Source: Dictyostelium discoideum (lineage: Eukaryota). From it: 64,000 nt of DNA. A program made the position numbers and the translations under genes. The notes under the pieces were generated by a model that saw nothing but the letters and a program-made list of their open reading frames with translations, was not told the origin of the DNA and made no database searches. Shown one piece after another: positions 13,752 through 17,847 of this stretch. The DNA lies in contig CM000151.3 of assembly GCA_000004695.1 (NCBI GenBank), positions 4,800,001 to 4,864,000 of the forward strand. The letters are read 5' to 3'. Numbering within the stretch: position 1 is the first letter of the stretch; each line of letters opens with the position of its first letter.

Positions 13752-13884
13752 TTAACATGAAACTGTTCTATAAATATCCTCGTGCCAAACAAATACATTA
13801 CGTCCACAAGTCATTAACTCTGGTGAAGTTGTACAATTTGTTGGATAGTCTTCGCAATACTATGAAAAATATTAAAAAAAATAT

Positions 13885-13915
<31 letters not shown>

Positions 13916-14016
13916 TTTTAACTATTATCGTTTTTTAAAATTAATTTCAATAAAACTTACCAATACTGATGCTGAAATTAAAAAAATAATTAAATTGGAA
14001 ATTTAAATCGTGTGTT

Positions 14017-14060
<44 letters not shown>

Positions 14061-14729
14061 ATTTAATACATATGTTCACCTTGATCACAATAAAATTTTG
14101 AAAAAGAATTATTTCCTAAAAAAAAAAAAAAAGAATTATTAATTAGTAATCAATTTAAAAAAAAAAAAAAATAATAATAATAATGATAATAATAATAAAT
14201 AATTTTATTACCTAAATGGAAAACAGTATTATTTGTATAAAAATAATACCATTGAGGATTACCTAAACAATTTGGATCAGTAAATTGAGAATATTTATAT
14301 GCATATTCTGGCATACTTGTTGGATTTTCTTTAATTGTAACCAAAACATAATTATATGGTTGATAATACATGTAACCAATATCTGGAACTTTGTAACACT
14401 CATTAGGAAAAAAAAGTTACATCATCTTCTGAATTTGAATTTGAACATGTAATATCAGACCCTTTATATAACTGAAATGTTGCATTTGCATTATCTTTTC
14501 CAAGTGTTTTATAATTATTTAAAGTTGATGTAAAATCACCAATAGCAAAACATTCACCAACAACAAATGCATAACAAACTCCATTTTCACCTTTTGATAC
14601 CGTACATTCATAATCTTCGTATGGTGTCATCTCTACATAATAAACTGATTCAACAACCAATATTGTTGAAAAACAACAAATTATAATAAATAAACAAATA
14701 AAATAAATTAAATTATTATTATTAAACAT
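13752..14729 (-). pseudogene. Secreted Cys-containing family protein, paralog A of the gene at 16957..17847. Probably disrupted. Exon-like parts: 14212..14729, 14080..14115, 13961..13971, 13752..13859.
   Basis: It shares the signal peptide and the STILVVESVYYVEMTPYED…VVGECFA…NPTSMP…NPQWY…FYC module with paralog B. The frame breaks inside an A8/T8 homopolymer at about 14408..14415 (DDVTFFS* followed by +1-frame …ECYKVPDIGYMYYQPYNYV). An AT-rich (TAT)n insertion at 14116..14211 is flanked by GT..AG. The donor after exon 1 is degenerate: GGTGAACATATGT, where paralog B has GGTGAACGTAAGT. The 11-nt micro-exon (CATCAGTATTG) and the terminal exon (YCEDYPTNCTTSPELMTCGRNVFVWHEDIYRTVSC*) are retained. 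Confidence 0.5.
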
Positions 14730-14831
14730 TTTAAAAAACTAAATGTGAAAATAAAAAAAAAATAAAAAAAAAAAAAAACCAAAATAAACCTTATAAAAAA
14801 GTAAATTAATTATGAATAAAAATATAAAATA

Positions 14832-14990
14832 TTAATTTTTTGAATATTTAGATCCTAATACTTTAATGACCCCATCTGATTTTGAGTCAATCTCTTGGTG
14901 ACATTGATCACATTTTTCGTATTTTGTTTTAGTTATGTTTTGAATACATGTTGCACACCATGGTTTACTTTCATATTGATAAAATTCATC
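14832..14990 (-). other. Orphan exon-like ORF encoding a C-x2-C-x11-C-x2-(C/H) zinc-ribbon-like peptide; no start codon found.
   Basis: Translation is …KKIDEFYQYESKPWCATCIQNITKTKYEKCDQCHQEIDSKSDGVIKVLGSKYSKN*. It follows an AG (AAATAG|GATGAA) and an upstream in-frame stop, so it looks like a 3' exon. No convincing upstream exon exists between it and the Gfo/Idh/MocA gene. Confidence 0.2.
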
Positions 14991-15158
14991 TATTTTTTTT
15001 TTTAAAAAAAAAAAAAATTAGTTATCTTTATGAAAATCTTGACGTCATAAAACAAAATAAAATAAAATATCCAAAAATATCTTTTTTTTTTTTTTTTTTT
15101 TAAAAAATAATTTTAAAACTTTATAAAATATCTAAAAATATCTTTTTTTTTTTTTTTT

Positions 15159-16451
15159 TTAAAAAGTTAAAACACTATTTTTTAATCTTGATTTTTCAGA
15201 TTCAAATACTAATTTATGAGAAGCAAGAGTATCATCAGGACCAGATAAAATTTGAGTTGGATCATTTTCAGAGACTGCATAAATAAATGATCTCATGAGG
15301 TAATAATCTGAAGCACCATGATTTGACATTTTTGTATTTTGAATTATTTGTGGTTTAAAGATTTCTTTATCACCAAATCTAAAGTCATCATAGACGATGT
15401 CATAACCATTGTTACATTCTAATTGACCCATTGAACCAAAGATTCTAATTTTACGTACACACATACTCTCTGTGAATGCAACCATACTAAAAGAGGAGAG
15501 AGCACCACCTTCAAATTCTAAATTCACAACTTGCTGATCGACTACGTCATTATCACTCTCATAGACACATCTACCATAGGGACCGTTTTCAATTGCCAAT
15601 TTAACATTCTCTTTTGTTGGCTCTCTATCTGGTACTAGTACATCCCTTTTCCAAGGATAATGCTCTAAATAAATCTTTTGAGCACTGTATGGACACGTTT
15701 TGCTAATTGCGCATTCTACACATCTCTTTGCACTACCAGCATTGGTAGGTTTTTTCTCCTTTTTAAAGTATGTCAAGCTACCAAATGACGATACTTTCTT
15801 GCACTTTTTTCCGCCCATAAAATAATGAATCAAGTCAAGATCATGACACGACTTTGCCAATAGCATGAATGTCGAGGTTGAGAGTTTTCTCCAATTGCCT
15901 CTGACATAGGAATGGGCGTGGTGGTAGTACCCCACAGGCTCCAAATGCTGGATGTTTAGCACCTCCCCTATCAATCCACTGTCTATCAATTGCTTGATTT
16001 TAATATTAACCGGTGAGTATCTCAATACGTGGCAAACAGATAACATGACATTGTTGGCTTTGCAAGCTGATGTAATTCTCTCACAATCTTTTTCAGTGAT
16101 AGCTAATGGTTTCTCTACTAATAAATGATACTTTTTATTAGCAAATGCAATTGCAGGCTCACAATGTAATTGGTCGGGTGTTGCTATTAACACTGCATCT
16201 GCGAATTTATCCATTGATATTATGTCTTTCCAATTTTCAAATATCATATCACTTGATAATCCAAATTCATTACCAAGTGTATCTCTTCTAAATTTAATTG
16301 GATCACATACTGCAACAATCTTTAATCTATTTGGTCTTTCAATTGAATATCTACTATAAACATATCCTCTTTGACCACACCCAATTATTATTAATTTTAC
16401 AATTTTATTATTATCAAATTTCTTTTCTTCATTTTCAATATTATCTTCCAT
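15159..16451 (-). CDS. Gfo/Idh/MocA-family NAD(P)-dependent oxidoreductase (430 aa)
   Basis: N-terminal Rossmann fold KLIIIGCGQRGYVYS…IVAVCDP. The family pattern …EKPLA…DLIHY… is present. Single uninterrupted ORF. Confidence 0.8.
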   Translation of the reverse strand: MEDNIENEEKKFDNNKIVKLIIIGCGQRGYVYSRYSIERPNRLKIVAVCDPIKFRRDTLGNEFGLSSDMIFENWKDIISMDKFADAVLIATPDQLHCEPAIAFANKKYHLLVEKPLAITEKDCERITSACKANNVMLSVCHVLRYSPVNIKIKQLIDSGLIGEVLNIQHLEPVGYYHHAHSYVRGNWRKLSTSTFMLLAKSCHDLDLIHYFMGGKKCKKVSSFGSLTYFKKEKKPTNAGSAKRCVECAISKTCPYSAQKIYLEHYPWKRDVLVPDREPTKENVKLAIENGPYGRCVYESDNDVVDQQVVNLEFEGGALSSFSMVAFTESMCVRKIRIFGSMGQLECNNGYDIVYDDFRFGDKEIFKPQIIQNTKMSNHGASDYYLMRSFIYAVSENDPTQILSGPDDTLASHKLVFESEKSRLKNSVLTF

Positions 16452-16956
16452 TTTTTTTAATAACTATACTTTTTTTATATATAAATAATTATTAGATGTA
16501 GTGGTAAAAAATTAAAGAAAATAAAAAAAAAAAAAAAAAATTAATTAAAAAAAAAAAAAAAAAAAAAAATTAAAAAAAAAAAATTCAGAGAACGTTCAAA
16601 TAAAAACATTTAAACTTTAATGGGATAAATGAAATAATAAAAAAAAAAATAAAAAAAAGGTATAAAAAAAGGTATTAAAAAAAAAAAAGGTAGCTGTTTA
16701 ATTTAAATTTTTTATTTTGTCAAATCATTTTTGTTTTAAGAATGAATAAATAAAAAAAAAAAAAATATTAAAATATTGAAAAAAAAAAAAAAAAAATCAG
16801 CTCAATTATTTTTTTTTATTTGGAATATATTTTAAATAAAATAATCAAGATTTAACTCTTTTTTTTTTTCATTTATAAATTAAAATTATTTTTCATTTTT
16901 TTATTTTTTTTTTTTTTTTTTGGTTTGTATAAAAAAAAAAAAAATATTAATTATAT

Positions 16957-17847
16957 TTAACATGAATCTAAATAGTAAATGGGTTCTTTCCATGCCCATG
17001 CATTACGACTACATGGTCTGTATATATCTGTAGATGTGCAATTACTTGATGAACCTTCACAATACTATTTATAAAAAAAATATATAAAAATATTAGAATA
17101 ATTTTAAAAAACTAGTTTTCCTGTTTTTTTTTTTTTTTTTTTTTTTTTAAACTTACCAATTCGTATGCTAATTTTTATTTATATTATATTTGAATGAAAC
17201 AAATAAAATTTAATTTTATTAGGATCTATAATTTTAATATTTTATAATTTTTTTTTTTAAAAAAAAAAGGTTAAAATATACTTACGTTCACCTTCATCAC
17301 AATAAAATTTACTGAAATCATTATTACCATAATGGAATGTTGTACCATTTGTATAGAAAAAGTACCATTGGGGATTGGTAGCACAATTGGAATCACTATA
17401 TTGTGTGAATTTAAAAGCATACTGTGGCATGCTTGTTGGATTTTCTACAATTGAAACTAAAACATAATTATATATATTTGGATACATATTATTGTCAGCG
17501 TAATTTGGTGCATTATAACAACTTCCTGATTGATAAGTAACATCATTTACTGGATTAGCTTGTGAACATGTTGAATCTGAATTTTGATATTGATGAAATG
17601 TTGCTGTATTATTACCAACACCGCTAAGTGAAATCACATAATTATTAATTATTGGCGCAAAACTACCAACAGCAAAACATTCACCAACAACAAATGCATA
17701 ACCAACTCCACTTTCACCTTTTGAAACTGTACATGCATCATCTTCATATGGTGTCATCTCTACATAATAAACTGACTCAACAACCAATATTGTCGATCCG
17801 ATTAATAACAATAAACTTAAAAAATAAATAATATTTTCAAATTTCAT
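16957..17847 (-). CDS. Secreted Cys-containing family protein, paralog B (intact). Exons 17286..17847, 17157..17167 (11-nt micro-exon) and 16957..17064.
   Basis: Signal peptide MKFENIIYFLSLLLLIGS. Exon 1 ends …FYCDEGE at a GTAAGT donor in phase 1. The micro-exon CATACGAATTG is flanked by TTAG and GTAAGT. The final exon (acceptor AAATAG) encodes YCEGSSSNCTSTDIYRPCSRNAWAWKEPIYYLDSC*. Exon sizes and phases match paralog A. Confidence 0.6.

Follow-up and report, generated by a model that had tools for sequence, protein, structure and literature searches.

Two minus-strand genes, here called copy A and copy B, lie within a 64,000-nt stretch of Dictyostelium discoideum DNA (assembly GCA_000004695.1, contig CM000151.3, positions 4,800,001 to 4,864,000; referred to below as the window, G+C content ~20%). 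Our overall reading of this locus, which we hold with high confidence as a whole, is that A and B are two old tandem paralogues of the PF11912 family that share a genuine 11-nt micro-exon, that copy B (AX4 gene DDB_G0274987) is the functional gene of the pair and has a wrong gene model in the AX4 reference, that copy A is dead, and that the pair is subject to birth-and-death turnover. The PF11912 family, the annotated copy B gene and the presence of the micro-exon in GenBank models from sister genomes were already known. What is added here is the error in the AX4 model, an independent confirmation of the lesions of copy A, the reclassification of a (TAT)n segment as a conserved intron, an origin of the micro-exon from two introns, and the pattern of lineage-specific and reciprocal loss.

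The exon and intron coordinates of both copies were confirmed by script on the window sequence. Copy B starts with a 562-nt exon 1 (17286..17847, phase 1, 3′ end GAAC|GTAAGT) that covers the greater part of the PF11912 domain and whose encoded N-terminus resembles a signal peptide. Exon 1 is followed by intron 1 (17168..17285; 118 nt, 9% GC, GTAAGT..TTAG), by the 11-nt micro-exon CATACGAATTG (17157..17167), with TTAG upstream and GTAAGT downstream, by intron 2 (17065..17156; 92 nt, GTAAGT..ATAG), which is absent in the paralogue DDB_G0290143, and by a last exon of 108 nt including the stop (16957..17064; YCEG...SC*), which carries four family-invariant or near-invariant cysteines. Together with the preceding C, the micro-exon encodes P-Y-E-L. 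The transcript spliced with the micro-exon has 681 nt of coding sequence (226 amino acids [aa] plus the stop codon), and without it the last exon falls out of frame. The product of exon 1 is identical to residues 1-187 of the AX4 reference protein XP_644278, which assigns the window to AX4 or a strain nearly identical to it, and matches PF11912 with an E-value of 3.6e-33; its N-terminus, MKFEN followed by the hydrophobic segment IIYFLSLLLLIGSTILVV, forms a helix at residues 3-18 in the AlphaFold2 (AF2) model, which is consistent with a signal peptide. No exact match to the spliced 226-aa product was found in the protein collection searched. In copy A the corresponding elements are the micro-exon CATCAGTATTG (13961..13971; P-S-V-L), flanked by TTCAG and GTAAGT, intron 2 (13860..13960; 101 nt, GTAAGT..CATAG) and a 108-nt last exon (13752..13859; YCED...SC*). 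A preliminary description of this DNA had proposed that both genes need the 11-nt internal exon, that it lies between TTAG or TTCAG and GTAAG, and that both end in a 108-nt exon of the form YCE[GD]...C*. All of this was borne out: TAG or CAG precedes the 11 nt in both copies, the full donor GTAAGT follows, splicing restores the frame in both, and the micro-exon is kept in every orthologue.

The window was then set against nine orthologous loci (L001-L009), which came from D. discoideum FIR, FIW and FIT, D. cf. discoideum FIY and FIZ, D. citrinum FIU and FIV, D. firmibasis, and D. dimigraforme (L007). The locus of strain FIT (L004, GCA_054883475.1) was independently assembled, and its identity to the window is 98.7% in copy A and 99.8% in copy B. 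In copy B, for which columns were counted over the window and the eight orthologous loci other than that of D. dimigraforme, 19 of the 20 columns of the block TAG + 11 nt + GTAAGT were invariant, as against 17 of 109 in the interior of intron 1 and 13 of 83 in the interior of intron 2 (~16%). Within the micro-exon itself 10 of 11 columns were invariant, and the sole change, TAC/TAT, is synonymous in the micro-exon frame. Among the intact copy A orthologues the only variation was TTA/TTG, which is also synonymous. The GC content of the micro-exon was 36% vs 9% for the flanking introns. Over the 64 kb of the window the pattern AG-N11-GTAAGT had only two occurrences, each of them at one of the micro-exons, with 0.49 expected. 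No conserved intronic elements around the micro-exon were visible in the intron alignment of copy B.

The micro-exon was also followed at the protein level. The peptides EPYELYCEG or EPLQLYCED are present in annotated proteins from at least eight sister genomes, and the newer GenBank models of FIR, FIW, FIY, FIZ, FIU, FIV and D. firmibasis contain ...CDEGEPYELYCEGSS...SC. Intronless homologues from Cavenderia fasciculata (L010) and Acytostelium subglobosum (L011) code the equivalent residues contiguously (NPMQQIC and QPYETHC), between two invariant cysteines. With the micro-exon the copy B product covered positions 1-197 of the Pfam profile (115.8 bits), whereas the reference protein covered positions 1-174 (98.6 bits), and the match reached residue 212 of the protein only in the micro-exon frame. 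The micro-exon residues fall in a strand of the AF2 model (residues 188-194), where the predicted local distance difference test score (pLDDT) is >90 (84.9 for the whole model). As part of the overall reading given above, the micro-exon is thus very probably ordinary coding sequence, contributing P-x-x-L to a predicted β-strand between two invariant cysteines.

The preliminary description had named no family for these products and had suggested a search with a hidden Markov model of them. The Pfam search placed both in the known family PF11912 (CfaA_B_C, formerly DUF3430), with scores of 115.8 bits for copy B and 88.8 for repaired copy A, far above the cut-off of 28.6. The preliminary description of tandem paralogues of a secreted family with about ten cysteines was upheld. 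The ten cysteines of copy B stand at family columns; when 13 and 19 family members were aligned, nine of them (C39, 57, 94, 110, 155, 183, 193, 209 and 226) proved invariant, and the tenth, C200, was conserved to at least 90%. The last four of the ten need the micro-exon frame. An exhaustive HMMER search returned only 16 cluster representatives at 50% identity, and the ten that were looked up were all dictyostelid. A and B belong to a large dictyostelid family of disulfide-rich, all-β proteins with signal peptides, some of which are bacteriolytic in phagosomes (BadA) and others counting factor-associated.

Against this background the AX4 reference protein of copy B (XP_644278/Q554P5; P0006) was examined. 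It has 220 aa, and beyond residue 187 it continues with ...CDEGERNIVKVHQVIAHLQIYTDHVVVMHGHGKNPFTI. In the reference model a GTATAT donor 4 nt further downstream is used, the micro-exon is skipped (junction 17282|17064) and translation of the last exon proceeds in the +1 frame, so that the C-terminus reads NIVKVHQVIAHLQ...; a C-terminal peptide NIVKVHQVIAHLQIYTDHVVVMHGHGK would mark this reading, and YCEGSSSNCTSTDIYRPCSR that with the micro-exon. The reference reading is without four invariant or near-invariant cysteines and 23 positions of the Pfam profile. The AX4 model of DDB_G0274987 therefore appears to be wrong over its C-terminal 33 residues, the tail lacking four structural cysteines because the 11-nt exon was missed. 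At 16957..16990, close to the end of the last exon, AX4 reads KEPIYYLDSC. All nine other genomes have H for P and A, S or T for D (KEHIYYLASC, for example), and FIT, in spite of its 99.8% identity, also differs from AX4 at this point; these AX4-only residues are either laboratory-strain mutations or errors of the reference sequence.

Copy A was aligned over seven genomes, with the window and L004 set against intact orthologues from D. cf. discoideum, D. citrinum and D. dimigraforme. Its exon 1a (14212..14729, ATG at 14729) carries a +1 frameshift in a T8 run (14408..14415), and the open reading frame (ORF) runs into a TAA and ends at 14403 after 108 codons. Exon 1b (14074..14115) has 42 nt, (G)NNSFSKFYCDQGE, and is followed by a dead 5′ splice site of intron 1 (14068..14073), which reads ATATGT in place of the GTATGT or GTAGGT of the orthologues. 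When one T was deleted and the introns were spliced out, a 225-aa product was obtained that is 58% identical to that of copy B (E-value 2e-89). Both lesions, the T8 context ACTTTTTTTTCC as well as the replacement of G by A at +1 in the donor of intron 1, were common to the window and L004 only. The other five sequences read AC-N-TAT-T[T/A]T-GC-N (V-T-Y-F/Y-A-N) in frame, and the six intact orthologues from the three related species have ORFs of 221-227 aa from which both lesions are absent. Since the frameshift is shared with the independent assembly L004, it is real and not an assembly error. The preliminary description had placed this frameshift in an 8-nt homopolymer, and its reality and position stood; it did not arise by a slip in a pre-existing homopolymer, because the run derives from substitutions plus one inserted base in the ancestral ACTTATTTTGCT (V-T-Y-F-A-N). 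Likewise, the loss of the first donor was correctly noticed, but the donor that copy A had ancestrally was GTATGT and not GTAAGT.

Further signs of decay were seen elsewhere in the gene. The micro-exon, which is nearly invariant among the intact orthologues (CATTACAATTG or CATTGCAATTG, P-L-Q-L), has three changes in 11 nt in AX4. The AX4 lineage also carries one in-frame codon deletion and has accumulated 4 synonymous (S) and 15 nonsynonymous (N) substitutions, including a change of a family-invariant Gly to Cys. In the last exon of the intact orthologues the variable sites were distributed 4/1/14 over the three codon positions, which indicates purifying selection where copy A is intact. From its lesions, copy A is a real and recent pseudogene in the AX4/FIT lineage, and the term "freshly pseudogenised" used in the preliminary description is fair. 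A U12-type AT-AC intron starting at ATATGT was considered and rejected, as its motif differs from ATATCC and its 3′ end is AG; Dictyostelium is not known to have a minor spliceosome.

A third proposed lesion of copy A, an intron-like (TAT)n insertion, had to be reinterpreted. The segment is a conserved GT..AG intron, here intron X (14116..14211; 96 nt, phase 1, GTAATA..TTTAG; a TACTAAT close to the 3′ end is conserved), and it is spliced out in the proteins of the intact orthologues. Intron X was present in copy A of D. discoideum, of two strains of D. cf. discoideum and of two strains of D. citrinum (the equivalents in L002, L005, L008 and L009), and was absent from copy A of D. dimigraforme, from all B copies and from the paralogue at L012, a D. 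cf. discoideum locus that carries the orthologue of DDB_G0290143. Once spliced, copy A has an intact ORF of 222-227 codons in both D. cf. discoideum and D. citrinum, and the annotated proteins (P0003, P0012 and P0014) remove the intron. Its start, G|GTAATAA, resembles that of the next exon, G|GAAATAA, and the 3′ part of the AX4 intron contains AATAATTCTTTTT, which is identical to the start of the downstream exon. An origin of intron X by local duplication could account for this repeat, as could chance in AT-rich DNA.

The state of the pair differed among strains and species. In the D. discoideum strains FIR and FIW (L001, ~10626..10845, and L003, ~10640..10716) about 1.2 kb is deleted and nearly all of copy A is gone: homology to the window ends at ~15047 and restarts at 13817, at a junction with the microhomology TTATGAC/TAATGAC, and what remains is the last ~70 nt of the last exon, behind an expanded (ATTTT)n. 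This remnant and AX4 have one derived synonymous change (CAC) in common. In D. firmibasis copy A is entirely absent, and the oxidoreductase gene that otherwise adjoins it is absent from the syntenic position as well. In D. dimigraforme the situation is the reverse of that in AX4: copy A is intact, and copy B (L007, 4520..5450) has its ATG out of frame (ATGTTTTGA), GG instead of AG at the micro-exon acceptor, an unusually diverged last exon and an annotated product that stops at 170 aa. From its sequence this copy B looks decayed; one T fewer would restore the signal peptide, and the extra T could be an assembly error.

In a neighbour-joining tree of three flanking genes D. firmibasis fell outside, a near-trichotomy was formed by D. 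dimigraforme, D. citrinum and the D. discoideum group, and AX4/FIT, FIR/FIW and FIY were ~3.5% apart. Copy A was in all likelihood intact in the common ancestor, as it still is in D. cf. discoideum, D. citrinum and D. dimigraforme, and was disabled in the AX4/FIT lineage by the +1 frameshift and the G-to-A change in the donor. The distribution over strains and species shows that inactivation took place inside the D. discoideum complex, as two separate events or as a single one to which the deletion was added later. With copy A lost in some lineages and copy B decayed in D. dimigraforme, the locus fits a birth-and-death turnover of a fast-evolving secreted family. The snapshot of gene-family turnover noticed in the preliminary description thus extends to death by point mutation, deletion and reciprocal loss across the complex.

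The origin of the micro-exon was approached through DDB_G0290143, which is the closest AX4 paralogue outside the pair (47% identity, same domain); L012 was the sole outside paralogue whose gene structure was compared. The gene at L012 is interrupted only once, by an 89-nt intron that agrees in codon and phase with intron 1 of A and B, with the junction ...AAAC|GTAGGT...AATAG|CATACGAAAATTTGTGTGAG. Its exon 2 opens with the same CATACGAA and runs directly into the Cys codon, so that its last exon includes the 11 nt; the second intron and intron X are both missing. The reference model of DDB_G0290143 is full length (135.7 bits, profile 1-205). The presence of intron 1 only in this paralogue implies that the micro-exon is the stretch between an older intron and a second intron located 11 nt downstream, and the occurrence of intron 2 in both A and B implies that it predates their duplication. 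Thus, the micro-exon would have been isolated when an older phase-1 intron was joined by another one 11 nt downstream, and it would be spliced by way of two adjacent short introns (~100 nt) with consensus AG and GTAAGT sites. As the more distant homologues (L010 and L011) are intronless, sequential gain is favored, although loss in the other lineages may be the explanation instead. We tentatively propose stepwise gains, of intron 1 in an ancestor shared with DDB_G0290143, of intron 2 in the ancestor of A and B, and of intron X in A only, possibly after the split of D. dimigraforme, and we consider this scheme a possibility that is somewhat short of an even chance. The near-trichotomy described above means that the tree does not separate gain from loss of intron X. 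Literature searches found no paper describing micro-exons in Dictyostelium, and those on the gene ID and on the new genome assemblies returned nothing relevant.

Several points weigh against the interpretation given here. The inclusion of the micro-exon in AX4 mRNA is a strong inference from conservation and homology rather than an observation, and the newer GenBank models of the orthologues may themselves rest on homology. The out-of-frame reading of the reference is open in all orthologues, and the presence or absence of stop codons therefore does not separate the two models. For copy A, the difference between the AX4 lineage (4 S : 15 N) and two sister lineages (12 S : 10 N) is marginal (Fisher p = 0.053), the change between species (23 S : 55 N) shows that the family is fast-evolving anyway, and the automated annotation of FIT calls a 183-aa product at this copy. 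With regard to introns 2 and X, gain, and loss elsewhere, may both be compatible with the data. Finally, bacteriolytic activity, which PMC7886984 shows for BadA alone, would be no more than a candidate function of DDB_G0274987 itself.

The alternatives were weighed with these points in mind. The two-exon AX4 model could be correct, in which case copy B would have a single intron running from the GTATAT donor to the last acceptor and a lineage-specific C-terminus devoid of cysteines; this is the model deposited in GenBank and UniProt (XP_644278 and Q554P5), its intron has GT..AG boundaries and its frame is open, also in the orthologues. Yet it drops the four invariant or near-invariant cysteines and the 23 profile positions, relies on a donor (GTATAT) that is weaker than both GTAAGT sites, is contradicted by all the newer orthologue models and by the structure of the paralogue, and leaves unexplained both the conservation of the 11-mer with its splice sites and the synonymous-only variation in the micro-exon frame; we regard it as extremely unlikely. 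A regulated cassette would reconcile both models, with the reference representing a skipped isoform and skipping either switching the protein off or giving a tail without cysteines. A length that is not a multiple of three would make skipping an on/off switch, and the skipped frame runs open to a stop in all orthologues. This explanation is nevertheless improbable, given that both flanking donors are perfect GTAAGT consensus sites, that the reference isoform also requires a shifted donor, beyond simple skipping, and that the introns show no conserved elements near the micro-exon. It could also be that copy A is still functional in AX4, the frameshift being a homopolymer sequencing or assembly error and a cryptic donor replacing the mutated one: homopolymer length errors are common, a GT is present 4 nt downstream of the lost donor, and one pipeline called the 183-aa product in FIT. 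The preliminary description had itself noted that a run of 7 nt would leave copy A intact, and the independent assembly of FIT also has T8, with the same flanking substitutions and the same ATATGT. Moreover, use of the cryptic donor would lengthen the exon by 4 nt and leave the frame broken, the 11 nt of the micro-exon carry three changes compared with none or one in the orthologues, and two sister strains deleted the gene outright. All the GT..AG models for the 183-aa product that were obtained by brute force excise conserved, Cys-containing sequence and translate the poly(A) of an intron. A functional copy A in AX4 is hence very hard to maintain, and we retain the reading in which copy B is functional with the micro-exon and copy A is a pseudogene.

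The surroundings of the two copies are conserved. The gene order epimerase - B - GFO/IDH/MocA oxidoreductase - A - amino-acid transporter - CBM49 was observed across the orthologous loci, and the order B-GFO-A was found in L002, L004, L005, L007, L008 and L009. The intronless gene for the GFO/IDH/MocA-family oxidoreductase (15159..16451, minus strand) sits between copies A and B in this conserved synteny. Between the oxidoreductase gene and copy A there is an exon-like open segment on the minus strand (14833..14990), located after a TAG acceptor, whose translation, DEFYQYESKPWCATCIQNITKTKYEKCDQCHQEIDSKSDGVIKVLGSKYSKN*, shows a CxxC...CxxC/H pattern. On reading, a LIM-like identity had suggested itself and was dropped, as Pfam gave no significant match for this product. 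The segment occurs only in the window and, with 100% identity, in FIT; the other eight loci lack it. The FIT annotation joins it onto the oxidoreductase (477 aa rather than 430). The segment is probably a piece of a gene whose insertion is lineage-specific.

These results bear on the use of the reference as well as on gene evolution. Expressing, tagging or modelling DDB_G0274987 from the reference would use a mis-folded tail, and the same annotation error may be present in other members of the 54-gene family. The locus provides a clean and well-dated example of duplicate-gene turnover, with death by point mutation, deletion and reciprocal loss within one species complex. If the intron gains are true, the clade of A and B would be a rare, datable and sequence-resolved case of recent spliceosomal intron gain in Amoebozoa, and the locus would show how micro-exons can be born. 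As a whole, this is a useful correction of an annotation concerning ordinary biology, and current concepts are left unchanged.

The products of A and B can be compared with known systems through their family. DUF3430 comprises ~160 proteins from dictyostelids, of which D. discoideum has 54; every member has a signal peptide, and the family is marked by at least eight conserved cysteines and by Y/FxxxxC motifs (PMC7886984). BadA, BadB and BadC are enriched in a bacteriolytic fraction, whose activity goes up with overexpression of BadA and down with its depletion, and the MiAMP1/β-barrelin antimicrobial fold has been proposed to resemble half of DUF3430 (PMC7886984). The likeness of the family to that fold consists in proteins that are Cys- and aromatic-rich, all-β and secreted. 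Copies A and B share with the Bad/Cfa proteins a length of ~220 aa, a hydrophobic, signal-like N-terminus, ten cysteines at family columns, the Y/FxxxxC motif and the restriction to dictyostelids; the likeness to BadA/B/C and CfaA/B/C was drawn through the Pfam match and not by direct comparison, and DDB_G0274987 shares only 25-47% identity with the other representatives of the family that were retrieved.

In animals, plants and fungi, micro-exons that gene predictors overlook are known as a general class. The micro-exon of copies A and B resembles this class in its length of 11 nt, which is not a multiple of three, in its canonical splice sites and deep conservation, and in having been missed by first-generation annotation, with a frameshifted C-terminus as the result. 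It differs from the neural or otherwise regulated cassettes of animals in that it appears to be constitutive, a by-product of two introns that lie 11 nt apart in a compact, short-intron genome.

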